DNA from: Parcubacteria group bacterium Athens0714_12
GTDB lineage: Bacteria > Patescibacteriota > Patescibacteriia > UBA2591 > VMGY01
Reading direction: 5' to 3'
DNA: 56,302 bases
Assembly (NCBI GenBank): GCA_007378955.1
Contig: VMGY01000005.1
Location: forward strand, 1-56,302
This document shows positions 7,203 through 49,081 of the stretch, in pieces. The notes below the pieces were generated by a model. That model did not search any database. It had not been told where the DNA came from and saw only the letters and a list, made by a program, of their open reading frames with translations. The position numbers and the translations under genes are program-made. Position 1 is the stretch's first letter. Every line of letters begins with the position of its first letter.

Positions 7203-7289
7203 CGGGGCTGATGAAAATTTCAGTCATTTTAAGAAACACGATATCCGCGATTCAAAAAAACTCAATGAAGCCAAAAGTTTTTTATGATT

Positions 7290-7436
7290 ATTGCCAAGAG
7301 AGCTAACGAACGCAACGCGAGTCATAAGTATTAGTCTTAAGATTGTTGTTCGTGTTGCCGTTGTTCAAGTTCACGTTCCACGCGTTGTGGGTATTGTTAG
7401 ATTTAGTAGTGGCTGACCAAAAGTTGTTACCGGCGT
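7290..7436 (-). repeat. DGR template repeat (TR); its sense is on the minus strand
   Basis: It is 147 bp with no indels relative to VR 8067-8213. Its AAC and AAT codons on the minus strand correspond to varied VR codons. The IMH*-like end is attgccaagagagctaacg. Confidence 0.8.
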
Positions 7437-7603
7437 AAATTTTTTTCCGCTATTTTTCCTTAACTGAATCAATCTTTGCCAAAGCAAAGTATAATTCAAT
7501 TGATACTTTATCCCGCAGTACTACGGGAAGCGGAATCGCAATAATTCTCAAACCCGCTTTTTGTTTGTCCTGCAGACGCGGGACTAAAACAAAAATTCTG
7601 GCT

Positions 7604-7969
7604 TCATTGAATTTTCCTTTTCAAATTATCAAAAAACCATTTTTCCCAACCAAATACCTGTTTAGAAATTTCCTCTAAAAAACGGCTTAAAAATTCTAAT
7701 TTTTTAACATTAATTACTTTCAAATCATAAGCCACTCTTAAATGAATTTTTAATCGTTCAATCCTCGCATTTATTTCCGAAAAATAAATCCCTTTATCTT
7801 CCTTGGAATTAGTTACAACAATCCAATCCAAAAGTTCGCCAACTATTTCTTTTAATTTTTGACCCAATGAATATTTATATTCTCTGGGAAAATTATGTGT
7901 CGTGCGATAAATTTCAAGATTTAAATCATATCCCTTTTGAAAAATTGGCAGATGAATATAACGCGACAT
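7604..7969 (-). CDS. avd: Four-helix-bundle protein (TIGR02436, the '23S rRNA IVS protein' family); Avd-like DGR accessory variability determinant
   Basis: LPIFQKGYDLNLEIYRTTHNFPREYKYSLGQKLKEIVGELL...RIERLKIHLRVAYDL fits the four-helix-bundle family. It lies between VR and TR, as in canonical DGRs. Confidence 0.65.
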   Translation of the reverse strand: MSRYIHLPIFQKGYDLNLEIYRTTHNFPREYKYSLGQKLKEIVGELLDWIVVTNSKEDKGIYFSEINARIERLKIHLRVAYDLKVINVKKLEFLSRFLEEISKQVFGWEKWFFDNLKRKIQ

Positions 7970-8066
7970 ATTCCTCCTTAAATATATACGCTAATAATGC
8001 CGAATCGATGTTTTATTAGTTTTATAAAAAAATAATTAAATTAAAAAAATCATAAAATTATAAAAT

Positions 8067-8213
8067 ATTGCCAAGGGGGCTAACGAACGCAACGCGAGTC
8101 ATAAGTATTAGTCTTAAGATTGGCGTTCGTGTAGCCGTGGTACAAGTACACGTCCCACGCGTTGTGGGTACCGTTAGATTTAGTAGTAGCCGACCAAAAG
8201 GAGTTACCGGCGT
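8067..8213 (-). repeat. DGR variable repeat (VR), covering the last 44 codons of the target gene plus 13 bp past its stop codon (the IMH-like end)
   Basis: It differs from TR at 12 TR-adenine positions: AAC>GCC, TAC x3, CAC, GAC, TCC; AAT>GGT; TCA>TCG. There is 1 silent non-A change and 2 changes in the GC-richer IMH end (ggggg versus gagag). Confidence 0.8.
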
Positions 8214-9540
8214 GGGGTATAACGGTTGAGGAGCTCCATGACCCGTCAATATACGCTTGCATCAATTCTTTTTGGTGGGGTAAACGCCAATTGCCATCTC
8301 CTAAGGCCTTACAACCGGTAATGTTCGGGGTGCTGGTTGCTGTAACACATCGGCAGGCATCATTACCGTCAGCAGTGCAGGTTCCTGGGTTTGCCCAACT
8401 TTCCGGCGCCCAGCAATTATTCGCCCACCACCAATTATGATCAGTTCCACTGTCTAAATAATCAGACCAAATTTGTCCTGTATTATTGTCTTGATAGCAA
8501 ACATCGCCCGCGCAAGCCGTAGAATCTCCTGTTTTGCAATAATTATTAGCCGCAGCGCATTGGGTCCAAGAAGCGGCAAAACTATCAGTCGGTCTTGCCC
8601 CGGCATCATTATAATCATCTACTCCGCCTAAGGCTTGAGTATAAAAAGCAAAATCTTCCACCGGACTGGTCGCCGAGCCATTTTTTATATTCACCACTGA
8701 AAACATATTTCTGTTATTCAAATATTCCAGCCGTTCTAAAATATTTCCGTCTATATTGGCGGAGATGGTGGTTGAACTATATCCGGACTTAGCGAGCGCG
8801 TCTAAATATTCGGCTCTGGTATAAGTCCAAGTGGTGGAGCTCGCCAAGGCGGTGGAAGCCGGCGCCGCATAATCATAGAGCGTTTTCTGCCAGCCGAAAA
8901 TATTAGCGGTGCTGGTGGCTGATGTGGAAGTGCCGATCGCGTCGTGCGTATACGCCTGCCCGGCGAATAAACTTGTTGAAGTGGCAGGGGTGGAAGTGTT
9001 CCAGCCGATTAAATAAGCGATACTGCCCCAAGCCCGAGTAGTTGAAGCGGTGGAGCTGGAAACAAGATATTTGAGGTCGGAATTGAGAAAATTTAAGTAT
9101 TCCGCTCGGCTGTTAGTCCATAAAGCAGTGGTTAACGCAGTGGAAGCCGGCGCGGTATAATCATAAAGAGTTTTCTGCCAGCCAAAAAGAGTTAAGGTGC
9201 TGGTGGCAACAGTGGAAGTGGCGATGGTGTCGCTAATCGCTTCCAAGCTGTCTGTGGTTCTGCTAAAAGTGTTATTGCTGTCTTTTGAAGCCATATCCAA
9301 TAAGGAATGCATGGTGGCGGCCGGGCTTGCCGAAGGCGTTAAACTGCCGGCGTAAGCGATCACCGTAATCACCAACACGGAAATAACCACAATCAACCCG
9401 TCAACAGCCAATTTATGGAGGTTCAACCTCCATATTGAGGTTGAACCTCCATATTCTTGTCCTTTTATCCTCTTGGATAATTTTTTTAGATAATCCTTTT
9501 TGTTTATTTGTTTCATAATTTTTCTCCAATAAAAAAACAC
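8080..9540 (-). CDS. DGR target (variable) protein. It has an N-terminal TM or signal segment, tandem ~85-aa Thr/Ser-rich repeats and a C-terminal DUF1566/C-type-lectin-like ligand-binding domain that holds the VR.
   Basis: C-terminus ...GDGNWRLPHQKELMQAYIDGS...FWSATTKSNGTHNAWDVYLYHGYTNANLKTNTYDSRCVR* (the DUF1566 hallmark ends in RCVR). The exact start is uncertain because a REP doublet (9412-9452) lies in-frame near the annotated N-terminus. Confidence 0.7.
   Translation of the reverse strand: MFFYWRKIMKQINKKDYLKKLSKRIKGQEYGGSTSIWRLNLHKLAVDGLIVVISVLVITVIAYAGSLTPSASPAATMHSLLDMASKDSNNTFSRTTDSLEAISDTIATSTVATSTLTLFGWQKTLYDYTAPASTALTTALWTNSRAEYLNFLNSDLKYLVSSSTASTTRAWGSIAYLIGWNTSTPATSTSLFAGQAYTHDAIGTSTSATSTANIFGWQKTLYDYAAPASTALASSTTWTYTRAEYLDALAKSGYSSTTISANIDGNILERLEYLNNRNMFSVVNIKNGSATSPVEDFAFYTQALGGVDDYNDAGARPTDSFAASWTQCAAANNYCKTGDSTACAGDVCYQDNNTGQIWSDYLDSGTDHNWWWANNCWAPESWANPGTCTADGNDACRCVTATSTPNITGCKALGDGNWRLPHQKELMQAYIDGSWSSSTVIPHAGNSFWSATTKSNGTHNAWDVYLYHGYTNANLKTNTYDSRCVR
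9412..9452. repeat. REP doublet: tatggaggttcaacctccata + ttg + aggttgaacctccatat (inverted pair)
   Basis: It has the same palindrome core as the RAYT-flanking REPs. It is translated in-frame (YGGSTSIWRLNLH) in the 5' extension of the DGR target ORF. Confidence 0.7.
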
Positions 9541-10529: not shown

Positions 10530-10546
10530 GTCAAGGTTGAACCTTG
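10530..10546. repeat. REP-related palindrome variant tcaaggttgaaccttga
   Basis: It has the same ggttgaacc core as the REPs but different outer arms. It lies between mnt and rplU. Confidence 0.5.
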
Positions 10547-10564
10547 ATATTTTCACCGAGTTGG

Positions 10565-12744: not shown

Positions 12745-13434
12745 TCAAAATGGGCGGATAAACTTCCGTCCGCGGTAGAAATTGTCCAGCCATTTTTTGA
12801 TATTATAATCTCCTTGATTAATCATCGGCTCTATGGCAAAAGTCATTCCTTGCCTTAAGATGATGCCGGTTTTTCCTGCGCCAAAATTAGGTATTAACGG
12901 ATCTTCATGCAGTTTTATGCCGATGCCATGGCCTGTTAAATCCCTCACCACCGAAAAGCCGTTCTTTTCCGCATAATTTTGAATAGCTGAAGAAATATCG
13001 CCTAAATAATTTCCATCTTTTACTTGCTGTAAACCTTTAATTAAAGCGTTTTTAGTTGATTTGATTAATTTTTTAGCTTGATTATTAATTTTTCCTATTC
13101 CCACGGTCACCGCCATATCCGAATAATACCCCCGATATTTTATGCCTAAATCCAAACCAATAATGTCGCCTGATTTTAAAATTTTTTTAGCCGAAGGAAA
13201 ACTATGCACCACCTCGTCATTCACCGAAGCGCAAAGAGCAAAAGGATAATTTCTATAATCTTTAAAAGCCGGCGCGGCTTTGAATTTTTTTATTTCTTCT
13301 TCGGCAATGCTATTCAATTCCAAAGTAGAAACTCCCGGCTTTGCCGCCTTAATAACTTTTTTTAAAATTAACGCCAAGATTTTCCCGCCTTGGCGCATTA
13401 TTTTTATTTCTTCTGAATTTTTGATTGTAACCAT
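12745..13434 (-). CDS. map: Methionine aminopeptidase type I
   Basis: ...[11 protein letters not shown]...GDIIGLDLG...[11 protein letters not shown]...FAIEPMI. The track ORF extends to 13497, but that extension is read-through into a MITE copy. The real start is probably MVTIKNSEE at 13434. Confidence 0.85.
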
Positions 13435-13452
13435 ATGCGCGTATTTAAAAAT

Positions 13453-13598
13453 ACGGGATTGCCGCGTCGCCCCGACTCGCGTCGAGACTCCTCGCAATGA
13501 CAGGGTAAAAGAGTGTCATTGCGAGGAGGCAGCAGGAAGATCCTTTCGCTTCACTCAGGACAGGCTCCGCAATCCCGTGGTTCCCCGCAATGATATTA
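13453..13598. repeat. MITE-like element, family 1, copy C (a half unit plus a full unit), intergenic between map and adk
   Basis: gggattgc...cctcgcaatgac, then gtcattgcgaggaggcagc...ccgcaatcccgtgg...ccccgcaatgat. Confidence 0.65.
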
Positions 13599-13599
13599 T

Positions 13600-14256
13600 T
13601 TAATTTTTAATATTCTTTAAAATATCCTCTTTTACTTTTTCAACACTCTGTTCGCCATTAATCTCAATTAATTGCTTTTTTTTCTTAAAATAATTAATAA
13701 CCGGCAAAGTCTCTTTTTTATAAATATTCAATCTCATCACAATCCTTTCCGGCGTATCGTCTTTTCTGACATAAAGCGGCCCACGACATAAAGGGCATTT
13801 TTTCTGTCCCTTTTTTACATTCTTGCCAATTATAAAAGGTTGGTTGCAGGCATTGCAAGTCATTCTAATCGCCAAACGTTTCAACGACTCTTTTTCATTT
13901 ATATTAACAATAAAAACATAATCAATCTTCCGACCCAAGTTATTCAACATTTTTTCCAGATTTTTCGCTTCCGGCAAACGTCTTGGGCTGCCGTCAAAAA
14001 TTATGCCTTGATTGGCGGAAAGCGATTGAACCCTCAATTTAAGCATTTTTATAATCCAGGCATAGGGCACTAATTTCCCTTGCTGATTGATGGTTTTATC
14101 CACTTTTTTAGAAAACTCGCTTGAACCGGCGGCAATTTCCCTTAACATATCGCCGATTTCAAAATGCTCTAAATTAAATTTTTCCGCCAGTAATCGAGCT
14201 TGAGTCCCTTTGCCCGACCCCTGCGGCCCTAAAATAATAATATTTAATCCTTTCAT
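13600..14256 (-). CDS. adk: Adenylate kinase with a Zn-binding lid
   Basis: P-loop ILGPQGSGKGTQ; lid CNACNQ...CPLCRG. Confidence 0.9.
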   Translation of the reverse strand: MKGLNIIILGPQGSGKGTQARLLAEKFNLEHFEIGDMLREIAAGSSEFSKKVDKTINQQGKLVPYAWIIKMLKLRVQSLSANQGIIFDGSPRRLPEAKNLEKMLNNLGRKIDYVFIVNINEKESLKRLAIRMTCNACNQPFIIGKNVKKGQKKCPLCRGPLYVRKDDTPERIVMRLNIYKKETLPVINYFKKKKQLIEINGEQSVEKVKEDILKNIKN

Positions 14257-14325
14257 ATTGCTTTTATCTTACTACATTAAACAAAAATAAAAAAGCTCCT
14301 TTAGGAAACTTTGCGAAATCTCCGT

Positions 14326-14443
14326 AAATTACGAAATTCAATTTTATAAACAAAATCTTATGGGTAGATTGGAGCCTCTGCTCCAATCATAATTGTAGCC
14401 CCGAGCAGAGGCTCGGAGCTACCCATTTCGTAATTCACGGAAC
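14326..14443. repeat. MITE-like element, family 2 variant (TIR aattacgaaat / atttcgtaatt with a different hairpin core)
   Basis: aaattacgaaattcaat...atgggtagattggagcctctgctc...gagcagaggctcggagctacccatttcgtaattcacgg; it lies between adk and secY. Confidence 0.5.
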
Positions 14444-14451
14444 AATCTATT

Positions 14452-15726
14452 CTACAACCCTTCATATTCCCGCATCGTCATCTGCGATTCAATCTGTTTG
14501 ATGGTTTCAATAACCACGCTGACAATAATAATTAAACTCGCGCCGCTAATGGCAATAGTAGTAATGCCTAAAATCGGCTGGATAATCAAAGGCAAAATCG
14601 CGATCGCGCCCAAAGAAAAAGCGCCGGCTAACATAATCCTGTTGCTGACATTAGTTAAATATTCTCCGGTGCTTTTGCCAGGGCGAATACCGGGAATAAA
14701 ACCGCCCTGCTTCTGCAGATTCTCGGCGATTTGTTGGGGATGAAAAACGATGGAAGTATAAAAATAAGTGAAAGCCACCACTAAAACAAAATAAATGCCC
14801 GCGTAAAAAACTTGGTTTTGAAATAATTGAATAATAAAATGGGCAAAATTTTGAATCCAAATGTATTTCACTCTGGTTAAAAATTGCGCCACCAAAGGCG
14901 GAAATAAAATAAACGAAATAGCGAAAATAATCGGAATCATTCCCACTTGATTAATCCTTAAAGGCAAATAAGTGTCTGTGCCGCCGTACATCCGCATTCC
15001 CCTGATTCTTTTGGCGTAAGAAACCGGAATATTTCTTTGCGCTTCGCCGACAAAAACAATCCCGATTACCGTGGCAATCATCAAAGCGATAAAAATAATC
15101 AAATTGATAATTTGCGAAGGGTCAAAAACCATAATTGTCCTTTGGACCATTGCCGGATAATCCACCACAATTCCCGCGAAAATCAATAAGGAAATTCCGT
15201 TGCCTACTTTTTTCTCGGAAATAAGCTCTCCCAGCCAAACTAAAAACATCGTGCCGGCAACCATTGTAATAATCATCGTGGCGATTCGGAAAAAATCCAA
15301 TGAAGGCAAGATTTGCTGTTGCGCCCGGGATAATAAAATTATCATCGCGTATCCTTGCAGTATCGCCAAGGGCACGGTCGCTATTCTGGTATATTGGTTT
15401 AATCTTTGCCGTCCGCTTTCCCCTTCTTTGGTAAGTTCTTCCAAAGCGGGAATAATCATCGTCAATAATTGAAAAATAATTGAAGCGGTAATATAGGGGC
15501 CGATTCCCAAAGCAACGACTGAAAATCTTTCCATCCCGCCGCCGGACAACATATTCAAAAGGCCCAAAATTTGATTAGACTGAAAAAATTCTTTCAAATT
15601 AGCGACATTTATTCCCGGCATGGGAATATGCGCGGCAATTCTAAAAATTACCAAAATAAACAAAACAAAAAAAATACTTTTTCTTAAGTCTTTGATTTTC
15701 CAAATTTTTAATAATCCTTCAAACAT
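14452..15726 (-). CDS. secY: Preprotein translocase SecY
   Basis: Polytopic membrane protein, 424 aa; ...GMGISLLIF-like motifs; it sits at the L15-secY-adk position. Confidence 0.9.
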   Translation of the reverse strand: MFEGLLKIWKIKDLRKSIFFVLFILVIFRIAAHIPMPGINVANLKEFFQSNQILGLLNMLSGGGMERFSVVALGIGPYITASIIFQLLTMIIPALEELTKEGESGRQRLNQYTRIATVPLAILQGYAMIILLSRAQQQILPSLDFFRIATMIITMVAGTMFLVWLGELISEKKVGNGISLLIFAGIVVDYPAMVQRTIMVFDPSQIINLIIFIALMIATVIGIVFVGEAQRNIPVSYAKRIRGMRMYGGTDTYLPLRINQVGMIPIIFAISFILFPPLVAQFLTRVKYIWIQNFAHFIIQLFQNQVFYAGIYFVLVVAFTYFYTSIVFHPQQIAENLQKQGGFIPGIRPGKSTGEYLTNVSNRIMLAGAFSLGAIAILPLIIQPILGITTIAISGASLIIIVSVVIETIKQIESQMTMREYEGL

Positions 15727-15728
15727 AA

Positions 15729-16178
15729 TTATATTTTTATCGCTTGTCCGCCTGCTTTTTCTATCGCTTCTTTCGCTGATTCAGAAAAATCATTTAATTT
15801 AACCGTCAACTTTTTAGTTAATTTTCCTTTTCCTAAAACTTTAATCTTCCTTTTGGAATTCATTATTAAACCTTTTTCCAGCAAGCTTTTCGCGTTAACT
15901 GTTTCATCGTCTTTAAATCTTTTTTCCAAATCAAGTAAATTAACAATCTGGGGTTTAGGATGAATGCTTCTAAACCCTTTAAGTTTAGGAATTCTATTAA
16001 GAGTGCTTTTAATTCCCAATAATTTCAACCCGCCTCTGCCGCCGCTCCTGGCTCTTTGCCCTTTCATGCCTCTGGTGGAATAATTTCCATGCCCGGAGCT
16101 ATTGCCTCTTCCCACTCGTTTCTTTCTTTTCTTTGACTTCGGAGTTGGTTTTAAATTATATAAAGATAATTCCATATT
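15729..16178 (-). CDS. rplO: 50S ribosomal protein L15
   Basis: KRVGRGNSSGHGNYSTRGMKGQ. The likely start is MELSLYNLKP; the track ORF has a 20-codon 5' extension to 16238. Confidence 0.85.
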   Translation of the reverse strand, partial: NMELSLYNLKPTPKSKKRKKRVGRGNSSGHGNYSTRGMKGQRARSGGRGGLKLLGIKSTLNRIPKLKGFRSIHPKPQIVNLLDLEKRFKDDETVNAKSLLEKGLIMNSKRKIKVLGKGKLTKKLTVKLNDFSESAKEAIEKAGGQAIKI

Positions 16179-16246
16179 ATTTATTGGACCCGCGGCGCAA
16201 AAATTTTTTCTATTGCAAGACAAAAAATTATTACGCAACGGATCTA

Positions 16247-16762
16247 TTAATTTTTAATTTTCTCGTCTTGTTTTTTGTTTTTATCGCTTTTTTTCTCTTT
16301 TTTCAACAAGCTTATTTTTTTTAAAGCATTGATCGTGGCCCTGACATTGCTAATCTTATTTCTTGACCCCAGCATCTTACTGACAACATTTTTTATTCCC
16401 GCTAATTCTAAAACTATTCTTATTGAACCGCCGGCTTTTACTCCGGTTCCCTTAGGCGCTGGTTTTAATAAAATTTCCGCGGCGCAGTATTTTTCTTTTA
16501 TCTGATAAGGAATAGTTTCTAAATCATCTAACGAAATTTTTATTAATTCTTTTTTCGCGTTGCGAGTGGCTTTTTCAATGGCAATCGCCACGTCCGCTCC
16601 TTTTTCCGTTCCCTCCCCTATTTTTCCTTTTCTATCGCCCATAACAATACAAGCTCTGAATGAGAGTTGTTTTCCTCCCTTAGTAACTCTGGTCACGCGC
16701 CTTAAATCTATTAATCGCGATTCTATTTCCTCTTTTGAATTATTTCTATTAAACCTTGGCAT
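16247..16762 (-). CDS. rpsE: 30S ribosomal protein S5 with a Lys-rich C-terminal extension
   Basis: RVTKGGKQLSFRACIVMGDRKGKIGEGTEKGADVAIAIEKA. Confidence 0.9.
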   Translation of the reverse strand: MPRFNRNNSKEEIESRLIDLRRVTRVTKGGKQLSFRACIVMGDRKGKIGEGTEKGADVAIAIEKATRNAKKELIKISLDDLETIPYQIKEKYCAAEILLKPAPKGTGVKAGGSIRIVLELAGIKNVVSKMLGSRNKISNVRATINALKKISLLKKEKKSDKNKKQDEKIKN

Positions 16763-16787
16763 AAATTAATTTATATATGAATAAAAA

Positions 16788-17153
16788 CTAAAATTTCAAG
16801 CCCCCTTCTCTGGCTCCTTCAGCTAAAGATTTTATTCTTCCGTGATATTTATAGCCGCCTTTATCAAAAACTACCTGGCTTATTTTCTTTTCTATCGCCT
16901 TTTTGGCTATTAACTTTCCCACTTCTTTGGAAATCTCCTCCTTTTTTTTCTTGCCTTTATCTTTTATATCATGATCGCTGGCTGCCGCCAAAGTTTCACC
17001 TTTTTCATCATTTATCAATTGGGCGTAAATATATTTTAAACTTCTAAATACTGAAAATCTTGGTTTTTCTTGAGTACCAAAAATCTTGGCTCTGATTCTT
17101 TTGCGCCTTTTATTCCTTTTATCTTGTTTTATTTTTTGTAAACTTTTTTTCAT
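16788..17153 (-). CDS. rplR: 50S ribosomal protein L18
   Basis: RKRIRAKIFGTQEKPRFSVFRSLKYIYAQLINDEKGETL. The start is taken at MKKSLQ; the track's 5' extension runs into a repeat. Confidence 0.85.
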   Translation of the reverse strand: MKKSLQKIKQDKRNKRRKRIRAKIFGTQEKPRFSVFRSLKYIYAQLINDEKGETLAAASDHDIKDKGKKKKEEISKEVGKLIAKKAIEKKISQVVFDKGGYKYHGRIKSLAEGAREGGLKF

Positions 17154-17164
17154 ATATTTCTTTG

Positions 17165-17275
17165 AATTAAAAAATAACGGTTTCAAGGGAGGTGGATATG
17201 TCTTTTTTGCAGACGCGGCGATTAGTCCGCAGCGCAAAAAAGATATGTCCACCTCCTGATTATTTATTTCATAAT
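17165..17275. repeat. MITE-like element, family 2, diverged copy, in the L18/L6 spacer
   Basis: ggaggtggatatgtcttttttgcagacgcggcgattagtccgcagcgcaaaaaagatatgtccacctcc: a stem of different sequence but the same structure as the other copies. Confidence 0.55.
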
Positions 17276-17309
17276 TCAGGGATATTTATAAAATTTTTAA
17301 GAAAGCCCT

Positions 17310-17861
17310 TTATTTCGCGCCGATCGCTTTAGCGGCCTTGCCCGCTTTTCTTCTAATCACTTCGTCGCTGTATTTTATTCCACTTCCCTTGTAAGGCTCC
17401 GGTTTTCTTAATTTCCTTATCCGCGCGGCGGTTTCTCCCACTAATTGTTTGTCTATGCCAAAAATACTGACAACATTTTTTTCCGCTTTAATCTCTATTC
17501 CTTGAGGAATTTTAAATTCAATGGAATGGGAAAATCCTATATTTAAAATTAATTCTTTATCTTTAACTTGGGCCTTAAAACCTACCCCTATAATTTCCAA
17601 CTTTTTTTCAAAACCATCTTTAACTCCTTTAAGCATATTGGTAATTAATCTATAAAAGGTTCCTTGCAAAGCTTTTTGTTTTTTTTCTTTTTTATCTTTT
17701 ATCTCAACCATCAAATTGTTCTTATCCTGCTTGACATCAACAAAAGGATGAATTTTTAGCTTTAATTCTCCTTTTGGCCCTTTAACGGATATTAATCCCT
17801 CTTCTATTTTTATATTTATATCTTCCGGAACAATAATTGGCTTTTTTGCTAATCTAGACAT
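17310..17861 (-). CDS. rplF: 50S ribosomal protein L6
   Basis: MSRLAKKPIIVPEDINIKIEEGLISVKGPKGEL... Confidence 0.9.
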   Translation of the reverse strand: MSRLAKKPIIVPEDINIKIEEGLISVKGPKGELKLKIHPFVDVKQDKNNLMVEIKDKKEKKQKALQGTFYRLITNMLKGVKDGFEKKLEIIGVGFKAQVKDKELILNIGFSHSIEFKIPQGIEIKAEKNVVSIFGIDKQLVGETAARIRKLRKPEPYKGSGIKYSDEVIRRKAGKAAKAIGAK

Positions 17862-17876
17862 ACAAAATTATTATAT

Positions 17877-18275
17877 TTATGAATATATCTTACAAACAAT
17901 TTCTCCCCCTAATTTTCTTTTTCGCGCGTCTTTTCCCGTCATCAAGCCGCGCGAAGTGGAAACTACCACTAAACCAGGCCCTTCCACTACTCTGGGAATT
18001 TCTTTTGTTCCTCTATAAATTCTTCTGCCTGATTTACTGATTCTTTTTAAGTCCTGAATAACTGATTTATGTTCTTTATCATACTTTAAAGATATTTTTA
18101 TTTGGCCGTAATTTTCTTCTTTTTTCTCTACTTTTCCGACAAAATTTTCTTTTTCTAAAATTTTAGCGATGGCAAATTTCGTTTTTGAAAAAGGAAAAAC
18201 CACTTCGCTTCTCTTTCGAGCGACCGCGTTTCTGATGATGGTTAACATCTCGGCGATTGGATCGGTTGTAGTCAT
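17877..18275 (-). CDS. rpsH: 30S ribosomal protein S8
   Basis: MTTTDPIAEMLTIIRNA...VVSTSRGLMTGKDARKRKLGGEIVCKIY. Confidence 0.9.
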   Translation of the reverse strand: MTTTDPIAEMLTIIRNAVARKRSEVVFPFSKTKFAIAKILEKENFVGKVEKKEENYGQIKISLKYDKEHKSVIQDLKRISKSGRRIYRGTKEIPRVVEGPGLVVVSTSRGLMTGKDARKRKLGGEIVCKIYS

Positions 18276-18296
18276 AAAATTATTAAAAATTCTTGA

Positions 18297-18416
18297 ATTA
18301 TTTTATATTAATTACTTTGAATTACGAAATAGGCTGAGTAGGAGGCGCGCTCATATCTTTTTTGCAGACGCCCGTCATTAGTCCAAAGGCTAAAAAAGAT
18401 AGGAGCGCGCCCTGAA
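18297..18416. repeat. MITE-like element, family 2, in the S8/S14 spacer
   Basis: TIRs ttgaattacgaaat / atttcgtaattcaa; core hairpin ggaggcgcgctcatatcttttttgcagacgcccgtcattagtccaaaggctaaaaaagataggagcgcgccc. Confidence 0.75.
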
Positions 18417-18452
18417 TAATGAATTTCGTAATTCAAGCTAATTATGAAATTT

Positions 18453-18656
18453 TTACCATGAGGCCTTTCTGACTCCAGGGATATCGCCTTTATCAGCCAA
18501 TTCTTTAAAGCAAATTCGACAAATTCCAAAATCGCGCATATAGGCGCGTTTTCTGCCGCAACGCCAACATCTTAAAACTATGCGTGATTTATATTTTGGT
18601 TTTTTTCTTGATTGCGCTTTTTGTGCTTCGGTAGCCATAAAATTATTATTCTCCAA
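18453..18656 (-). CDS. rpsZ: 30S ribosomal protein S14, zinc-binding type Z
   Basis: [38 protein letters not shown]. The start may be MATEAQ at 18638. Confidence 0.85.
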
Positions 18657-19194
18657 AAGGAAATCCTATTAATTTTAATAATCCGAAATTTTCTTCTTTA
18701 TTTTTGCCTTTTACCGTGATTACTATTCCCAAACCGCAAACTCTTTCTATTTCATTAATATTTACTTCCGGAAAAACAATATGTTCTTTAAAACCGATGC
18801 TTAAATTACCGCTCTTATCCAAACTTTTTTTATCCAAGCCTCTAAAATCTCTTACTCTGGGTAAAGTAATATTAATCAATTTTTCAATAAAATCATACAT
18901 TCTTTGGCCGCGTAAAGTAACCATTAAACCCACTAATTGGCCCTGTCTTAATTTAAAACCGGAAATTGATTTTTTGGCTATTCTTTTTGCCGGCTTTTGT
19001 CCCGTAATGCGAGTTAAAACATCTTCCGCCAATTCCTGTAATTTTGAATCCTTGCCTGCTTGGTTTATATTTAATCCAACATTAACTGTAACTTTTTGTA
19101 TCTTCGGCGCCGATAAATCATTTTTAAATCCAAACCTTTTCTTCATTTCCGGAATTATTTGTTTTATATATTTTTCTTTTAATCTCATCTTCAT
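18646..19194 (-). CDS. rplE: 50S ribosomal protein L5
   Basis: [41 protein letters not shown]... Confidence 0.9.
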
Positions 19195-19198
19195 ATAA

Positions 19199-19507
19199 TT
19201 AAATTACTTCTTCGCATTTCTTGCATATCCTTACTTTTTTGTCATTATTCAATTCTTTATATCCAAGTCTAACCAATTTCCCGCATTTAGGACAAACAAT
19301 CATTACATTGGAAATATTTAAAGAGGCGGGGAATTGCATTCTTTGCCCCTTTTCCCCTTCTTTTTTGGGCTTGGTGTTTTTTATTCTCAAATTCAAACCT
19401 TCAACTATTACTTTATTTTCTTTAGGCAATACTTTAAGGACTTTTCCTTTTTTTCCCGAATCTTTTCCGGTTATAATTTTTACATTGTCGCCTTTTTTTA
19501 TTTTCAT
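19199..19507 (-). CDS. rplX: 50S ribosomal protein L24 with a C-terminal CxxC...CxxC extension
   Basis: MKIKKGDNVKIITGKDSGKKGKVLKV... (KOW motif), then ...VCPKCGKLVRLGYKELNNDKKVRICKKCEEVI. Confidence 0.85.
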   Translation of the reverse strand: MKIKKGDNVKIITGKDSGKKGKVLKVLPKENKVIVEGLNLRIKNTKPKKEGEKGQRMQFPASLNISNVMIVCPKCGKLVRLGYKELNNDKKVRICKKCEEVI

Positions 19508-19550
19508 AAATTTTTATTCGTATATTCGCGCTAATTCGTAATTCGCAGAC

Positions 19551-19922
19551 CTAAAGCACTTCCGGCGCTAAAGAAATAATTTTATTAAAACCTTTTTCTT
19601 TTAATTCTCTGGCGATTGGCCCAAAAATTCTAGTGCCCCTTGGGTCTTTTGTTTTTGGGTCTATAATTACAGCGGCATTATCATCAAATCTGATATAAAT
19701 GCCATTTTTTCTTCTAACTTCTTTTCTTGTTCTTACGATAACTGCTTTCAAAACTTCGCTTTTTTTTACCATTCCGTGCGGCTCTGCTTTTTTAACTGAT
19801 ACAGTTATAATATCGCCTATCACGGCATATCTTTTTTTATAACCGCCAAGCACGCGGATGCACATTAGTCTTTTGGCTCCGGTATTATCGGCTAACTTTA
19901 AAATTGAACGATGCTGAATCAT
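19551..19922 (-). CDS. rplN: 50S ribosomal protein L14
   Basis: [27 protein letters not shown]... Confidence 0.9.
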
Positions 19923-19998
19923 AGTATTATATTGTTAAATTGTTATATTTGCTAAATTGTTAAATTGAAATTAATATAACAATGTAATAATTTAACAA

Positions 19999-20253
19999 TT
20001 AAATCTTGCTGATTGCTCGCCATCTCTTATCTTTACTCAATGGCCGGCATTCCTGAATGATTACTTTATCCCCTGTTTTGTATTCGTTTTTCTCATCATG
20101 CGCTTTATATCTTTTACTTATTTTGTATTGCTTTTCGTATTTTTTGTGCCATTTCAATCTATCCACTTTAACAATTATGGTTTTGTCCATCTTATCAGAA
20201 ACAACCGCGCCTTGTAAAGTCCTTTTATTTTTATTTTTATCTGGCTTTTCCAT
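19999..20253 (-). CDS. rpsQ: 30S ribosomal protein S17
   Basis: [31 protein letters not shown]... Confidence 0.85.
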
Positions 20254-20257
20254 AAAT

Positions 20258-20440
20258 TTATTTTTCTTTTAAAATAGTTAATATTTGGGCGATTGACTTT
20301 TTATTTTTTCTTATTTCCATAACATTTTTCAATTGCTTGGAAGCAATTCCAAATTTCAAATCTACGAGCTTTTCTTTACTTTCAGAAAGCATTTTTTTCA
20401 ATTCTTCTTTAGTTTTTTTTCTTAATTCTTTAGTTTTCAT
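20258..20440 (-). CDS. rpmC: 50S ribosomal protein L29
   Basis: [30 protein letters not shown]; it is at the L16-L29-S17 position. Confidence 0.8.
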
Positions 20441-20453
20441 AAATTCGCGATTG

Positions 20454-20858
20454 TCATTTTTTAATAAATCTTGTTTTTACGGGCAATTTATGAGAAGCCA
20501 GCCTTAAGGCTTCCTTGGCTACTTTTTCCTCCACGCCGTCTATTTCAAAAAGAACCATTCCCGGCTTCACTACAGCGACATAATGGTCTACCGCGCCTTT
20601 ACCTCCGCCCATTCCGGTTTCCGAGCCCTTCGTTGTAATCGGCTTATCGGGAAAAATTCTAATCCAAATCTTGCCTCCTTTTTGAAGATAATGAGTAATT
20701 GCTTTTCTCGCCGCTTCAATCTGTCTGGAGGTTACCCATAATCCTTCCATGCTTTTTAAAGCAAAACTTCCAAAACTTATATCTGTTTTGCGGGTGGCAA
20801 CATTAGACCCTCTTCCTTTATGCATTTTTTTATGTTTTGTCTTGGCTGGTGATAACAT
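20454..20858 (-). CDS. rplP: 50S ribosomal protein L16
   Basis: MLSPAKTKHKKMHKGRGSNVATRKTDISFGSFALKSMEGLWVTSRQIEAARKA... Confidence 0.9.
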   Translation of the reverse strand: MLSPAKTKHKKMHKGRGSNVATRKTDISFGSFALKSMEGLWVTSRQIEAARKAITHYLQKGGKIWIRIFPDKPITTKGSETGMGGGKGAVDHYVAVVKPGMVLFEIDGVEEKVAKEALRLASHKLPVKTRFIKK

Positions 20859-20867
20859 AATTTTAAA

Positions 20868-21500
20868 TTAAAATTTCAAACCCTTATAAATCCATACTTT
20901 AGCCCCGATTGTTCCGTAAGTAGTATGGGCTGTGCCTCTGGCGTAATCGATGTCCGCTCTTAAAGTGTGTAAAGGAATTTTTCCCCAAAATAAATTTTCT
21001 CTTCTGGCTATTTCCACCCCATCCAAACGGCCGGACAATATTACCTTTACTCCCTGCGCTCCCGCTTTTTTAACTTGTTCAATTGTCTGCTTCATGGTCT
21101 TTCTGTAAGGCATCCTCTTTTCAATATTTTCTATTAAATTTTGCAAAACTATCTGGCTGCAAAGATTTGGGTTCTTAATTTCTTGAATTGTTATTTCTAA
21201 TTTTAATTTTTTATCTAAAAACTTTTTTTGGAGCTTATTCTTTAATTCTTCCGCACCCTGGCCTCCTCTGCCGATAATCAAACCTGGTTTTGCCGCGTGA
21301 ATAATCAGCTTTATATTATCAACCAATCTTTCAATCTCAATTTTTCCCACAGAAGACTTTTTAAAATATTCAAATAAAAATTTTCTTATTCTTGCGTCTT
21401 GTTGTAAATATTCAGCAAAGTTTCTCTTGGAGAACCATTTTGAATTCCATTGCTGGGTGCCTAAAATGCGAAATATTTTTGGATGTACTTTTTTACCCAT
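20868..21500 (-). CDS. rpsC: 30S ribosomal protein S3
   Basis: MGKKVHPKIFRILGTQQWNSKWF...KH domain...GRLDGVEIAR. Confidence 0.9.
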   Translation of the reverse strand: MGKKVHPKIFRILGTQQWNSKWFSKRNFAEYLQQDARIRKFLFEYFKKSSVGKIEIERLVDNIKLIIHAAKPGLIIGRGGQGAEELKNKLQKKFLDKKLKLEITIQEIKNPNLCSQIVLQNLIENIEKRMPYRKTMKQTIEQVKKAGAQGVKVILSGRLDGVEIARRENLFWGKIPLHTLRADIDYARGTAHTTYGTIGAKVWIYKGLKF

Positions 21501-21508
21501 AAAATTTA

Positions 21509-22138
21509 TTAATTAACTTTTCTGTTAAAAAATTTTTTCAAAAATCCTTTTTCGTTTTTTCTTCTGATTATATTCGTATGATCCTTCTGCTTATACTTCC
21601 CTTCTCGGCTATCGTCAAAAACTTTTGCTTTATGCTCTCCTGTCGCTGAAGATAATTCTTCTTTTTTATCGCCTTTGGAAATCACTTGCTTTTCTTTCAT
21701 TTCTTCTTTAAGAATGATTGGTTTTTCTATCGCTTCTTTTTTAACTTTTTTTTCTTCCTGCTTGCTCTTAACCTTTTCATCCAGAACAATATTTATATGA
21801 GAACTTCTTTTTCTTATGACTGTCGCCCGGCCCAATGCTTTTGGCATCCATCTTTTTAAAGTCGGGCCTTCGTCAACGGTAATTTTTTTTATATATAAAT
21901 TATCTTTTTTAAAATTAAAATTATGCTCGGCATTAGCAATGGCTGAATTAAGAAGCTTTAAAGTATATTTAGAAGCTTTTTTAGGAATAAACTTTAATTG
22001 ATTTTGAGCTTCTTCCGCGGACATTCCCCTGACCAAATCCAAAACATACTTAACTTTTTTAGGTGAAATTTTTAAGTATTTTGCTTTGGCAAAAACTTCG
22101 CTTGATTTAGATTTTTTTTCTTCTTTTGGCATAATCAA
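21509..22138 (-). CDS. rplV: 50S ribosomal protein L22 with a ~90-aa Lys/Glu-rich C-terminal extension
   Basis: AKAKYLKISPKKVKYVLDLVRGMSAEEAQNQLKFIPKKASKYTLKLLNSAIANAEHN... plus a C-terminal tail. Confidence 0.85.
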   Translation of the reverse strand: MIMPKEEKKSKSSEVFAKAKYLKISPKKVKYVLDLVRGMSAEEAQNQLKFIPKKASKYTLKLLNSAIANAEHNFNFKKDNLYIKKITVDEGPTLKRWMPKALGRATVIRKRSSHINIVLDEKVKSKQEEKKVKKEAIEKPIILKEEMKEKQVISKGDKKEELSSATGEHKAKVFDDSREGKYKQKDHTNIIRRKNEKGFLKKFFNRKVN

Positions 22139-22147
22139 TCTTTAAAA

Positions 22148-22441
22148 TTATTTTTCTGCTTGTTTCTGTTCTATATCTCTCTGCATTTTTCCGCCATGTT
22201 TTACAAACTTTCTTGTCGGAGAAAATTCTCCCAAGCAATGGCCAACCATATTTTCTACTATAAATACCGGAACATGCGTTTTTCCGTTATGGACTCCAAT
22301 TGTAAGACCAACCATTTCCGGAGTGATCCGACTGCTTCTTGACCAGGTTTTTATAATGGTTTTATCGCCTTGCTTTAAATCGGAAACTTTCTTCAACAAT
22401 TTTGGATCCACAAAAGGGCCTTTTTTTAAACTTCTCGTCAT
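22148..22441 (-). CDS. rpsS: 30S ribosomal protein S19
   Basis: [19 protein letters not shown]...[32 protein letters not shown]. Confidence 0.9.
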
Positions 22442-22445
22442 ATAT

Positions 22446-23270
22446 TTATTTTCTTCTTTTAATTATAAATTTATTGCTCCATTTATTTTTCTTTCTTGTT
22501 TTTACTCCCAAAGCCGTCTTGCCCCATTTTGTTTTTGGATGCTTTAAGCCGATTGGGTTATGACCCTCTCCTCCTCCGTGAGGATGGTCAATGGGATTCA
22601 TCGCTTTTCCTCTGACGCTTGGTCTGATGCCCAATAAGCGCTTTCTTCCCGCTTTGCCATATCTGACTATTCTGTGTTCTATTTTACTGACCTGGCCGAT
22701 AGTAGCTAAACAATTAATAGGAACTATGCGTATTTCTTTAGAAGGAAGTTTTAATTGGGCGTATTTTCCCTCTACCGACATTAATGCCGCCTGGCCACCC
22801 GCTGACCTTACGATTTCTCCGCCTTTACCGATAGCCAATTCCACATTATGAACCATTGTTCCAATGGGAATATATTTTAAAGGCATGGTATTGCCAATTT
22901 TTAATTCCGCCTTATTTTTTGAAGAAATAATTTCATCGCCCGCCTTCAAACCATCAGGCGCGATTATATATCTCTTCTCATTATCAGAATATTTAACCAA
23001 AGCAATCAAAGCGCTTCGGTTCGGGTCATATTCAATCGCTTCTACTTTAGCCGGTAAATCAAATTTATCTCTCTTAAAATCAATTATTCTGTAATAACGT
23101 TTAACACCGCCGCCTTGATGGCGAACTGTTATCTTCCCCCTGCTTCTTCCCGCTTTTTGCTTCTTAATCCTGATTAATTTTTTTTCCGGCTCTTTCTTGG
23201 CAATATCAGATTTTACGACTGAAGCTTTTCTTAATCCGGGTGTAATTGGTTTGTAAAATTTTATTGGCAT
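22446..23270 (-). CDS. rplB: 50S ribosomal protein L2
   Basis: ...[16 protein letters not shown]... and [10 protein letters not shown] motifs. Confidence 0.9.
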
Positions 23271-23281
23271 AATTAATTTCT

Positions 23282-23401
23282 TTGAATTACGAAATAGGTT
23301 GAGTAGGGGGCGCGCTCATATCTTTTTTGCAGACGCCCGTCATTAGTCCAAAGGCTAAAAAAGATATGAGCGCACCCTGAATAATGAATTTCGTAATTCA
23401 A
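23282..23401. repeat. MITE-like element, family 2, in the L2/L23 spacer
   Basis: About 95% identical to 18297-18416, with the same TIRs and core hairpin. Confidence 0.75.
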
Positions 23402-23402
23402 G

Positions 23403-23810
23403 CTAATTTTTAAATATCTCTATTTTATCTTCTTTCTTTAAAGTAATAATTGCTTTTTTTAAATTTTTAGTTTTTCCCTGGACTTTGCCGTATCTTGTAT
23501 TTTTGCCCCTTGTCTTGATTATATTCATCTTGATCGGGCTAACATTATAAAGCCCTTCAATGGCTTTTTTAATTTCAATCTTATTCGCGTCTTTTGAAAC
23601 TTCAAAAACATATTTATTCTTTGCCGCTAAATCAGTTGTTTTTTCCGTAATCAAGGGTTTTATTAAAATTTTGGAAATTAACCCTTGATCTTTTTTAAAT
23701 ATTTTATTTTTATCTCGCGCAATCTTAACATTAGAAGGTTCTTTTTTGATTTCTTTTTTTACCTCTTTTTTTTCTGTTTCTTTCTTTTGTTTAAATCCAA
23801 ATAAAGCCAT
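23403..23810 (-). CDS. rplW: 50S ribosomal protein L23 with an N-terminal Lys-rich extension
   Basis: ...ILIKPLITEKTTDLAAKNKYVFEVSKDANKIEIKKAIEGLYNV... Confidence 0.85.
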   Translation of the reverse strand: MALFGFKQKKETEKKEVKKEIKKEPSNVKIARDKNKIFKKDQGLISKILIKPLITEKTTDLAAKNKYVFEVSKDANKIEIKKAIEGLYNVSPIKMNIIKTRGKNTRYGKVQGKTKNLKKAIITLKKEDKIEIFKN

Positions 23811-23823
23811 ATTATTTTTTAAC

Positions 23824-24459
23824 TTATTTCTTAGGCAAATAAGTTTTTTCTAATAATTCCAATCCTTTTAAGGGAAGTAAAACATATTTATAATTCAATA
23901 AATCCATGATATTTAAATTATTGGCAAAGACGGATTTTACGAATGGAATATTCTTGCTGGATTGAATGACATTTTTATTGTCTTTATTTAAAATAATCAG
24001 TGTTTTATTTTTTTTAGACGGCAATTTTTCTAAAATTTCCGCCATCTTTTTTGTTTTAATTTCTGGCAATTCCAATTTATCCACCAGAATCAATTTGTGA
24101 GTATTCACTTTATCAGATAAACACATCAGTAACGCTTGCTTTCTTACTTTTTTATTAACTTTTTGCTTATAATTTTTTTCTTTTCTCGGCCCAAAAATCG
24201 CGCCTCCCCCGCGCCAAAGCGGAGATCTGATTGAACCAGCTCTTGCTCGGCCTGTTCCTTTTTGCTTCCATGGTTTTTTTCCGCCGCCGCTTACTTCGCC
24301 TTTTGTCTTCACATGAGCCCATGGCTGCCTAAGATTGGCTAATTGCGCGACCATTGCCTGATGAATTAATTCCGATTTTACTTTTAAACCAAAAATATCA
24401 GGGTTTAATTCCTGTTCGCCCGTTTCTTTTCCTTCTTGATTGTAAATCTTTGCTTTCAT
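23824..24459 (-). CDS. rplD: 50S ribosomal protein L4
   Basis: ...GGGKKPWKQKGTGRARAGSIRSPLWRGGG... Confidence 0.9.
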   Translation of the reverse strand: MKAKIYNQEGKETGEQELNPDIFGLKVKSELIHQAMVAQLANLRQPWAHVKTKGEVSGGGKKPWKQKGTGRARAGSIRSPLWRGGGAIFGPRKEKNYKQKVNKKVRKQALLMCLSDKVNTHKLILVDKLELPEIKTKKMAEILEKLPSKKNKTLIILNKDNKNVIQSSKNIPFVKSVFANNLNIMDLLNYKYVLLPLKGLELLEKTYLPKK

Positions 24460-24529
24460 AATTTCTATTATTAATTGCTGATTGTTAATGGTGATTTATT
24501 TTTTTCTATTAACAATTGACAATTAGTAA

Positions 24530-25135
24530 TTATTTTATGCTTCTTATTTCCAATAATGAATTTCTTGCTCCTGGCACCGCGCCTTTGAGCAAGATTATAT
24601 TTTCTTCCGGCAGGACTTCAATAATTTCTAAATTTTTTATTGTCACCCTGTCTCCACCCATTCTGCCTCCCATTCTAACGCCCTTAAAAACTCTTTGCGG
24701 ACCAGTAGAACCTATTGAACCGGGCATTCTTAACTGGTCCTTATGGCCGTGAGTTTTAGGGCTTCCATGAAAACCATGCCTTTTCACCACGCCTTGGAAT
24801 CCTTTTCCCTTTGAAGTTCCCGAGACGATGACTTTATCGCCAGGCTGGAAAGTGGAAACATCTATCTTATCGCCTTTTTTAAATTCTGAATTATCAACTT
24901 CAAATTCTTTTAAATATTGAAAATTTCCCAAATCGCTCAAATGCCCTTTTAAAGCTTTGTTTATTTTTTTCTTTTCCCCAAAGCCAATTTGAACTGATTG
25001 GTAACCGTCTTTATCTTTAGTTTTGACTTGAACAATAACGCAAGGACCGGCTTTAACCAATGTTAAAGGGACCACTTCCCCGTTTTCCCTGAATCTCTGC
25101 GTCATTTCAATTTTTTTTCCTAAAATAAACTTCAT
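24530..25135 (-). CDS. rplC: 50S ribosomal protein L3
   Basis: MKFILGKKIEMTQRF...GTSKGKGFQGVVKRHGF... Confidence 0.9.
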   Translation of the reverse strand: MKFILGKKIEMTQRFRENGEVVPLTLVKAGPCVIVQVKTKDKDGYQSVQIGFGEKKKINKALKGHLSDLGNFQYLKEFEVDNSEFKKGDKIDVSTFQPGDKVIVSGTSKGKGFQGVVKRHGFHGSPKTHGHKDQLRMPGSIGSTGPQRVFKGVRMGGRMGGDRVTIKNLEIIEVLPEENIILLKGAVPGARNSLLEIRSIK

Positions 25136-25289
25136 AATAATATAATAAAAGCCGGATATTCTTTAGCCAAATTTCTCTGGCCTCAAATAATATCCGGCCT
25201 TAAATTTATATAAATCTGGCAAATTGTAAAAATTTATTCCATATTATTTATAATTGTCAATCAATTATGTAAAAATTTTAACGCCGGGC

Positions 25290-25640
25290 TTACATTTTTA
25301 TTTCTACATCTACCCCTGCCGGCAAACTCAAAGTAGTTAAACTTTCAATGGTTTTCGGGGTAGGTTCAAGAATGTCCAAAAGTCTTTTATGAACCCTTAT
25401 TTCATACTGATTACGGGTATCTTTCTTTACAAAAGTTGAACTAAGCACGGTATAAATTTTTTTTTCTATAGGTAAAGGCACTGGCCCTATTATTTTTACT
25501 CCCGTGTCTTGCACTACATCCATTATTTTTTTCGTCGCCTGATCAATAATCTTATGGTCGTACGCCTTAATCTTAATTCTAATTTTGGATTTAGTTTCCG
25601 CTTGTTCCGCTTCTTTAACTTTAACTTTTCTTTCTGGCAT
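25290..25640 (-). CDS. rpsJ: 30S ribosomal protein S10
   Basis: IRIKIKAYDHKIIDQATKKI...GPVPLP...LDILEPT. Confidence 0.9.
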   Translation of the reverse strand: MPERKVKVKEAEQAETKSKIRIKIKAYDHKIIDQATKKIMDVVQDTGVKIIGPVPLPIEKKIYTVLSSTFVKKDTRNQYEIRVHKRLLDILEPTPKTIESLTTLSLPAGVDVEIKM

Positions 25641-29488: not shown

Positions 29489-29590
29489 AATAGTGTCATT
29501 GCGAGGAGCGACTGGAAGGAGCGACGCGGCAATCCCGTGGGATTAACACGGGATCCTTCGGTCGTCCGCCAGCTGGCAGACTCCTTCAGG
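29489..29590. repeat. MITE-like element, family 1, copy D, in the fusA/rpsG spacer
   Basis: gtcattgcgaggagcgactggaaggagcgacgcggcaatcccgtgggatt...cttcaggatgac. The left arm is identical to the unit at 6911. Confidence 0.65.
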
Positions 29591-29605
29591 ATGACAGCCT
29601 TACTG

Positions 29606-46061: not shown

Positions 46062-46395
46062 TTTAATTCAATTCTAAAATTTAACTTTTGAATCATTAAA
46101 TTTCTTTGAATTACAAAATATAAATGAAGTATGGCAAAACACAAAGTATAGCTGGCGCTATCGGGTAGAAAAAGCGCAAATGCAAGCCAATGAGAGAAAA
46201 AAGAAAGATTTGTTTTAAATCCTTCTCACCCCCAGCCAACCACCTCGCGTTAATTTTTGAAAAAATAAAAAAGGCCTACTCATGCTAAAAAGCATTTTCG
46301 GCCTTGTAATTTTGGGCTGGCGGATAATATTTAATTATCCGCCAGCTTTTTTCTCTTTTTTAGAGGAGTCCTTTCCGGCTTGCCTCCAGAAAAAA

Positions 46396-49014: not shown

Positions 49015-49081
49015 ATTGATATTTGGCTGGATTTAAAATGCGAAATGACATATTATAGGCATTTCGTAATTCACGGTAATT

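Follow-up and report, generated by a model that had tools for sequence, protein, structure and literature searches.

The S10-spc-alpha ribosomal-protein (r-protein) cluster of Parcubacteria group bacterium Athens0714_12 occupies the minus strand of contig VMGY01000005.1 (assembly GCA_007378955.1) from approximately 25.6 kb down to 10.9 kb, and several of its intergenic spacers contain short, hairpin-forming elements bounded by terminal inverted repeats (TIRs), which are the subject of this report. The window analyzed here is the entire contig of 56,302 bp, from a groundwater genome, with a GC content of 36%. An initial annotation, made from the sequence alone, had described these elements as mobile DNA resembling miniature inverted-repeat transposable elements (MITEs), located them correctly in the intergenic spacers of the operon, and further proposed that a variant of their hairpin implies selection on RNA structure. 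In the present analysis, the operon elements are identified as genuine MITEs with a distinctive TIR that recurs across Parcubacteria, and their hairpins are best explained at the DNA level, with passive co-transcription.

Elements of the ribosomal-protein cluster

Insertion-free spacers of the r-protein operon are mostly 2–15 nt long. The elements and the fragments related to them are listed below, together with the target-site duplications (TSDs) that flank them; element boundaries are given on the plus strand and include the five outer TIR bases. Because the genes lie on the minus strand, the operon mRNA is the reverse complement of the letters quoted in the initial annotation.

17160–17281, minus strand: MITE copy A, L6/L18 spacer; degenerate TIRs CTTTGAATTAaaAAAT / ATTTCaTAATTCAGGG; hairpin composed of an outer stem GGAGGTGGA/TCCACCTCC and a conserved inner stem and loop
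17154–17159 and 17282–17287: TSD of copy A, ATATTT; the left TSD abuts the L18 start codon (17151–17153)
18315–18438, minus strand: MITE copy B, S14/S8 spacer; perfect 16-bp TIRs
18309–18314 and 18439–18444: TSD of copy B, TAATTA
18291–18301: TIR-end-like remnant near copy B, TTCTTGAATTA
23280–23403, minus strand: MITE copy C, L23/L2 spacer; identical to copy B at 120 of 124 positions
23274–23279 and 23404–23409: TSD of copy C, TAATTT
14322–14440, minus strand: MITE D, secY/adk spacer; same TIRs CCGTAAATTACGAAAT / ATTTCGTAATTCACGG, unrelated two-hairpin interior
49036–49076, no strand assigned: internally deleted remnant; right TIR exact, ATTTCGTAATTCACGG, at 49061–49076, left TIR partial, CGAAATG, at 49041–49047
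46104–46119, plus strand: lone left TIR with one mismatch, CTTTGAATTACaAAAT

All the sequences described in the initial annotation are present, but its coordinates for copy B (18297–18416) fall approximately 20 nt too far to the left of the true position, and its inverted ends of 14 bp are extended to 16 bp. The element at 14322–14440 and the stub at about 49.06 kb, as had been stated, have the same ends as copies A–C; the interior type of MITE D is also encountered in metagenome contigs L006 and L014. The stub lies just beyond the stop codon of a TatD-like gene, and no convincing partner end was found for the lone TIR at 46104–46119. Copies A–D measure 119–124 bp (A 122 bp, B and C 124 bp each), related copies elsewhere approximately 100–280 bp, and the elements have no coding capacity, with the open reading frames (ORFs) across them being spurious read-throughs only. 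When a 13-mer of the TIR is searched with up to two mismatches, 16 occurrences are found in the window against 5.95 ± 2.4 in shuffled sequences, and pairs of TIRs separated by 50–400 nt number exactly four, every one of them within the r-protein cluster, compared with zero to two in the shuffles.

Copies A, B and C belong to one sub-family marked by a GGACUAAU/GCGUCUGC loop hairpin, and the loop motifs gcagacgc and attagtcc are shared by all three, as initially annotated, at an overall identity of 72–73% between A and the other two. The arms of the core hairpin are as previously quoted, with one or two imperfections in each copy: copy C has one G·U pair on the mRNA strand, copy B has a C × U mismatch, and copy A has two C × A mismatches on the mRNA strand that are G·U pairs on the plus (antisense) strand. 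A second assembly of this strain (L002) does not show the mismatch of copy B: its corresponding element (L002:6714–6837) has a perfect stem, A replacing C at that position, as well as one TIR substitution; this is strain-level variation inside the element. The hairpins are very stable on either strand, with folding z-scores of −7.6 to −10.3.

The insertions reach directly into the gene boundaries. The L23 stop codon TAG (23403–23405) consists of the last base of copy C and two bases of its TSD, and excising copy C along with one repeat restores ...AAT TAA TT ATG..., with a 2-nt L23/L2 spacer. The distance from the element end to the start codon is 9 nt for L2 and 6 nt for L18. A promoter-like match overlapping the TIR end was rejected, its second hexamer lying inside the L2 coding sequence. 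In the upstream regions of the operon genes (12745–25640), the r-protein genes have no Shine-Dalgarno-like motifs, and A/T-only stretches precede the start codons.

Three further spacers are unusually long for this operon, namely S10/L3 (154 nt, 25136–25289), S17/L14 (76 nt, 19923–19998), and adk/map (102 nt, 13498–13599), and here, too, inverted repeats or palindromic modules are found, of types other than the MITEs. The r-protein operon is invaded by several repeat families.

Evidence for transposition

Copies A, B and C are each flanked by an exact 6-bp TSD (ATATTT, TAATTA, and TAATTT, respectively), and the corresponding sites were compared in six relatives retrieved through their L2 proteins (71–80% identity). 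In five of these relatives the L23/L2 spacer is compact (6–17 nt) and element-free; the L6/L18 spacer is 13–22 nt in three relatives, and the S14/S8 spacer is 30–82 nt in four, with no such element, the 82-nt spacer of L126 containing an unrelated palindrome. In the sixth relative, L128 (GCA_017973895.1), MITEs with these ends occupy other spacers, namely the one upstream of L2 and that of L14/L24, and the L22/S3 spacer contains a 5′-truncated copy of the A/B/C loop family. Filled and empty versions of a site can be paired directly in two cases: the element at L099:1330–1439 corresponds to a single TAATTA in L118, and that at L128:4177–4310 to a single TAATTT in L126. In addition, a 110-bp MITE in L099 is nested in an element of approximately 280 bp that is bounded by the same ends and by an 8-bp duplication of its own, TATTTTAT.

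The same elements recur in independent ENA and Logan assemblies, and short assemblies of the same strain break within the element, as expected because it is a multi-copy repeat. The operon elements are small and non-coding, have TIRs and TSDs, and are dispersed in multiple copies with both filled and empty sites; they are genuine MITEs, that is, mobile DNA with TIRs. The superfamily to which they belong is active, as witnessed by copies that are 97% identical, variants at the strain level, sites in both the filled and the empty state, and insertions within insertions.

The wider family: ends, targets, and hosts

Public metagenome contigs were scanned with the pattern AATTACGAAAT-N(75–105)-ATTTCGTAATT, which recovered paired TIRs in at least 120 contigs, mostly from groundwater and sediment projects; together with the TSDs and the empty orthologous sites, these recurrent paired ends substantiate the mobile character that had been proposed for the elements. 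Anatomy statistics were drawn from 118 non-redundant copies among the matches listed. The element boundary lies 5 nt beyond the searched core, which yields the 16-bp TIR YYNTGAATTACGAAAT, and the paired ends of an element read YYNTGAATTACGAAAT ... ATTTCGTAATTCANRR, with an equal per-position composition at both ends (128 copies). An exact direct repeat of 6–8 bp stands at a fixed offset from the boundary in 45 of the 118 copies, compared with 1 of 118 after the right flanks had been shuffled among the copies. The duplicated target is AT-rich, near-palindromic, and biased to T-W-A-A-T-T-A on both sides; TAA can be read in it on either strand, which accounts for the landing of elements at stop codons and in small AT-rich spacers. 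Among 111 evaluable copies, 99 are intergenic, and 70 of those 99 are situated between co-directional genes.

The hosts are divergent, since orthologues at the MITE-bearing loci share only 51% (SecY), 70–72% (EF-Tu), and 49% (S7) identity with the proteins of the window; one host is Ca. Campbellbacteria RIFCSPLOWO2_02_35_12. The 137 TIR-paired copies fall into at least 47 mutually unrelated interior types, the largest comprising 53 copies. With the TIRs removed, strong hairpins still form in 37 of the 47 interiors (median z-score −4.7), and eight types bear GTCAT...ATGAC modules, of which the same kind occurs TIR-less in the window. Palindromic cargo is a property of the whole superfamily, beyond the three operon copies.

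The core of the loop family, searched with two patterns, had no matches in 185,579 species genomes, the TIR pair had none in viral contigs, and the plasmid and phage collections contained no DNA similar to the element. No relevant papers on the TIR strings or on MITEs in bacteria of the candidate phyla radiation (CPR) were found in the searchable literature. Although MITEs as a kind are known, this family or superfamily in the ultra-small CPR bacteria is new and seemingly undescribed; its notable aspects are its breadth across Parcubacteria, the combination of conserved ends with variable palindromes, and the invasion of an r-protein operon.

The stem variant

The 21-bp stem was counted in an alignment of copy A, copy B, the L002 variant of B, copy C, and the L128 copy. 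The initial observation that the third copy keeps its pairing around a different stem was borne out: 7 of the 21 pairs are changed on both sides, 95% of the stem cells are paired, and none of 500 shuffles reaches these values. The L128 lineage provides a third stem version, GGTAAACT/AGTTTACC. All the doubly changed pairs nevertheless reside in one contiguous block of the outer stem beside 12 almost invariant inner pairs, and within the 28-nt unpaired loop only about three positions distinguish copy A from that of L128. This pattern looks like module replacement, unlike the gradual compensatory substitution of purifying selection. The converse pattern, in which the same stem encloses a different inner hairpin, is found on comparing L029/L035 with L052/L108, which again suggests that hairpins may be exchanged as modules. 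The outer stem of copy A shares GGAGGT...ACCTCC with a palindrome resembling repetitive extragenic palindromic (REP) sequences elsewhere in the window, where GGAGGT occurs six times. For the 53-copy sister family, RNAalifold predicted the outer TIR stem only, and for this reason that family is unusable for an analysis of interior covariation.

Tests of a strand-specific RNA role

Selection on the transcribed hairpin was examined through its strand dependence. The wobble pairs are inconsistent in strand, being located on the antisense (plus) strand in copy A and on the mRNA strand in copies B and C. In the 53-copy sister family, whose orientation is unambiguous, the orientation relative to co-directional flanking genes is the same in 17 cases and opposite in 17. 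Folding was compared for 63 non-redundant copies situated between co-directional genes; the sense RNA is the more stable in 31 and the antisense RNA in 31, with mean folding energies of −46.5 and −46.7 kcal/mol, respectively. The claim that covariation implies selection on RNA structure is therefore not upheld, given the contiguous block swap, the opposite-strand wobbles, and the even division of both orientation and stability.

No Rfam 15 family matched the elements, the sole match in the window above its gathering score being a tRNA; in E-value mode, the elements scored best with a plant miRNA-precursor model, at 24.5 bits, for which the gathering score is 144. A covariance model of the loop hairpin, run over 677 kb, returned the four loci on which it had been trained, L128 among them, and nothing else. 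A terminator scan found no terminator-like U-tail after the hairpins of copies A–C and one weak terminator-like hairpin in element D. Because the A–C hairpins have no such tail, transcriptional read-through is plausible.

Taken as a whole, these results favor an explanation of the hairpin at the DNA level, with passive co-transcription. By-product effects on the mRNA are nonetheless possible: RNase III may cleave the 21-bp stem, or the hairpins may occlude the start regions of L2 and L18, which are AT-rich and have no Shine-Dalgarno sequence. Two further candidate roles were rejected, namely an r-protein autoregulatory leader (elements absent from relatives, TSDs present) and an intrinsic terminator (no U-tract).

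Transposase genes

In about 0.9 Mb of loci, neither an autonomous element nor a transposase bounded by these ends was encountered. No transposase lies between the orphan TIR pairs of L077 and L115, the pair in L115 enclosing GlmS- and trigger-factor-like ORFs, and a looser TIR-pair scan of the loci returned only MITE-to-MITE pairs. An all-against-all clustering of 558 locus ORFs produced only housekeeping clusters and one divergent IS30-like cluster with different ends.

The IS30-like transposase genes are located on four MITE-bearing metagenome loci (L043:1239–2270, L057:266–1300, L072:57–1040, and L061:1376–2128). They are 28–33% identical to the L043 copy, which matches HTH_38, and their ends are unlike the MITE TIR; the assignment of the four-gene group to the IS30 family is our own reading and should be regarded as putative.

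In the window itself, a 227-aa Y1/HUH transposase-like gene is present at 1509–2192 on the plus strand (Pfam Y1_Tnp, 7e-9), and it also matches the NCBIfam model of the REP-associated tyrosine transposase (RAYT) at 5e-11, below the family cut-off. A palindrome, TATGGAGGTT(G/C)AACCTCCATA, stands on both sides of this gene (1478–2235) and recurs at 1681–1703, 9413–9454, and 10531–10548. The segment 1478–2235 has the appearance of a REP/RAYT ("REPtron") arrangement, here in a genome of the CPR.

Interpretation and alternatives

In the interpretation that we favor, to which a probability of roughly 0.82 is assigned, the elements are non-autonomous DNA transposons (MITEs) of a superfamily extending across Parcubacteria and the CPR, and they ride as passengers in the operon mRNA. 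The superfamily would be defined by its 16-bp TIR, YYNTGAATTACGAAAT, and by a 6–8-bp duplication of an AT-rich, near-palindromic target, whose TAA would steer insertions to stop codons and to the tiny AT-rich spacers of packed operons. Three copies of one sub-family and one of another would have entered the L23/L2, S14/S8, L6/L18, and secY/adk spacers after the lineage split from its sequenced relatives, presumably mobilized by a transposase acting in trans. The long hairpins would be a built-in feature of the superfamily, and the differing stems around the same loop would result, at the DNA level, from the exchange of modules or the regeneration of palindromes. From the position of the elements inside the operon and from the lack of terminator-like tails, we infer that they are most likely transcribed as passengers in the polycistronic mRNA; any effects on RNA processing, stability, or downstream translation would be by-products and not selected.

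Several observations weigh against this interpretation. The TSD length is variable (6–8 bp), and the TSD of MITE D is not clean. The loop family has four known members (A, B, C, and L128), and all of them are inserted in the sense orientation, with a two-sided p of 0.125. The block-wise, complementary replacement of stems is without a demonstrated mechanism. No transposase with these ends was found in the loci searched.

Alternatively, the hairpins may be selected cis-acting RNA elements in a co-opted MITE, serving as RNase III sites, as 3′-end stabilizers, or in the translational tuning of L2, S8, and L18. The paired changes at 7 of 21 stem positions, with 95% of cells paired, speak for such a role, as do the loop motifs conserved in A, B/C, and the L128 copy and the retention of the elements in independent assemblies of the strain; RNase III substrates need long stems, and those of 21 bp and 16 bp are of suitable length, while in genes without Shine-Dalgarno sequences a structure near the start codon could matter. 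However, the same spacers are empty in five relatives, and the operon accordingly works without the elements; the changed pairs form a single contiguous block beside a nearly unchanged loop; the wobble pairs are antisense in A, unlike those of B and C, which are sense; insertions of the largest sister family are divided 17:17 relative to gene direction; sense and antisense stabilities are indistinguishable over 63 copies; and Rfam offers no match. Only four members exist in the sequence searched, and their common orientation (4/4), which is in itself a point for an RNA role, is not significant. A selected RNA function is consequently judged unlikely. Also judged unlikely is a composite scheme in which one transposition system recognizing YYNTGAATTACGAAAT would have spread through very divergent Patescibacteria with interchangeable hairpin cargo, swapped or regenerated as complementary blocks (perhaps by REP/RAYT machinery or foldback synthesis), and in which the GGACUAAU/GCGUCUGC loop hairpin would have been co-opted here as sense-oriented processing or stability punctuation of a Shine-Dalgarno-less r-protein mRNA.

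A different route of mobilization would treat the elements as REP/REPIN-type palindromes, moved as single-stranded hairpins by the Y1 (HUH) transposase of the window (1509–2192) instead of by a DDE-type enzyme. The RAYT-like gene is indeed flanked by REP-like palindromes, TATGGAGGTTSAACCTCCATA, with which the outer stem of copy A shares its GGAGGT...ACCTCC (GGAGGT being found only six times in the window), and hairpin modules are apparently swapped or nested in MITE interiors, for example between L029 and L052. Nevertheless, Y1 transposition, as in IS200/IS605 and RAYT systems, generates no target-site duplication and does not need TIRs, whereas these elements consistently have both TSDs and 16-bp TIRs, and the MITE ends show no relationship to the REP that adjoins the RAYT gene; such an origin is very improbable, and at most the REP/RAYT system may contribute to the reshuffling of interior hairpins. 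Finally, short AT-rich inverted repeats are common in an AT-rich genome (36% GC), from which chance palindromes in AT-rich spacers, or else assembly artefacts, might be suspected. This suspicion is refuted by the TSDs and empty sites, the identical elements in independent ENA and Logan assemblies, the folding z-scores of −7.6 to −10.3, and the same paired ends in at least 120 metagenome contigs, leaving it with practically no credibility.

Other features of the window

A diversity-generating retroelement extends over 7289–9540, with a bAvd gene at 7604–7969 on the minus strand. Its template-like repeat (7289–7436) is paired with a variable-like repeat (8066–8213) at the C-terminal end of an Lcl_C-domain protein of 486 aa, and 12 of the 15 mismatches between the two correspond to adenines in the template copy on the gene strand. 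An ORF at 6609–7202 on the plus strand resembles, as judged by eye, the C-terminal part of a reverse transcriptase, the upstream part being seemingly missing or degraded. This ORF runs through two GTCATTGCGAG...CTCGCAATGAC palindromic modules (6806–6900 and 6910–7009), a type that is also present at 2822–2914, at 29494–29596, and in the adk/map spacer, and that in other genomes occurs inside MITEs bearing the YYNTGAATTACGAAAT TIR.

Two protein-coding genes on the minus strand have inserted domains. The GyrB gene (34603–37872, 1089 aa) contains an intein, with an Intein_splicing domain at aa 500–887, and the gene for the phenylalanyl-tRNA synthetase beta chain (38016–40817) encodes an NlpC/P60 peptidase domain at aa 483–595, between the B3_4 and B5 domains.

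Significance

The genomes of CPR/Patescibacteria are small (approximately 1 Mb) and streamlined, and a dense MITE superfamily here reaches the most conserved operon of the cell. The elements rewrite stop codons and start-codon contexts, to the point that the L23 stop is now partly element-derived, and they disrupt the short-read assembly of r-protein marker operons. The shared TIR provides a handle for locating the transposase, and the design of conserved ends with variable hairpins constitutes a natural data set on how palindromic DNA keeps its symmetry.

Comparison with known systems

Bacterial MITEs, which Delihas has reportedly reviewed, are non-autonomous TIR elements. The present elements resemble them in being approximately 100–280 bp long, non-coding, and multi-copy, with TIRs and TSDs, a mostly intergenic location, insertion polymorphism, and a hairpin spanning the whole element; in contrast, no parent insertion sequence (IS) was found in the loci searched, one TIR is combined with at least 47 unrelated and mostly palindromic interiors, and the hosts are CPR/Parcubacteria. 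REP and REPIN sequences are likewise short, palindromic, intergenic repeats, and this window does contain a RAYT-like gene with REPs on either side. However, REPINs are without the combination of TIRs and TSDs that these elements have, and the RAYT-adjacent REP has the sequence TATGGAGGTTSAACCTCCATA.

ERIC/IRU elements of enterobacteria and Yersinia are imperfect palindromes of approximately 127 bp in transcribed intergenic regions, for which orientation-dependent effects on mRNA stability have been reported. They share with the present elements the embedding of hairpins in transcription units, but ERIC is a single conserved family of unrelated sequence, and no orientation dependence was detected here. 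The Correia/NEMIS elements of Neisseria are MITEs of approximately 100–155 bp with TIRs, often co-transcribed as hairpin RNA, and Correia RNA is cleaved by RNase III; Correia elements, which are confined to Neisseria, are characterized by 26-bp TIRs, duplication of a TA target, an interior that is constant, and an IHF site. The elements described here, with a 16-bp TIR of another sequence, a 6–8-bp TSD at TWAATTA, variable interiors, and Parcubacteria hosts, stand outside that family. As hairpin MITEs in transcription units, the Correia/NEMIS elements are nevertheless the closest functional analogy to the role proposed in the initial annotation, and if the present elements were shown to be processed in the mRNA, they would represent the CPR counterpart of the Correia and ERIC elements.

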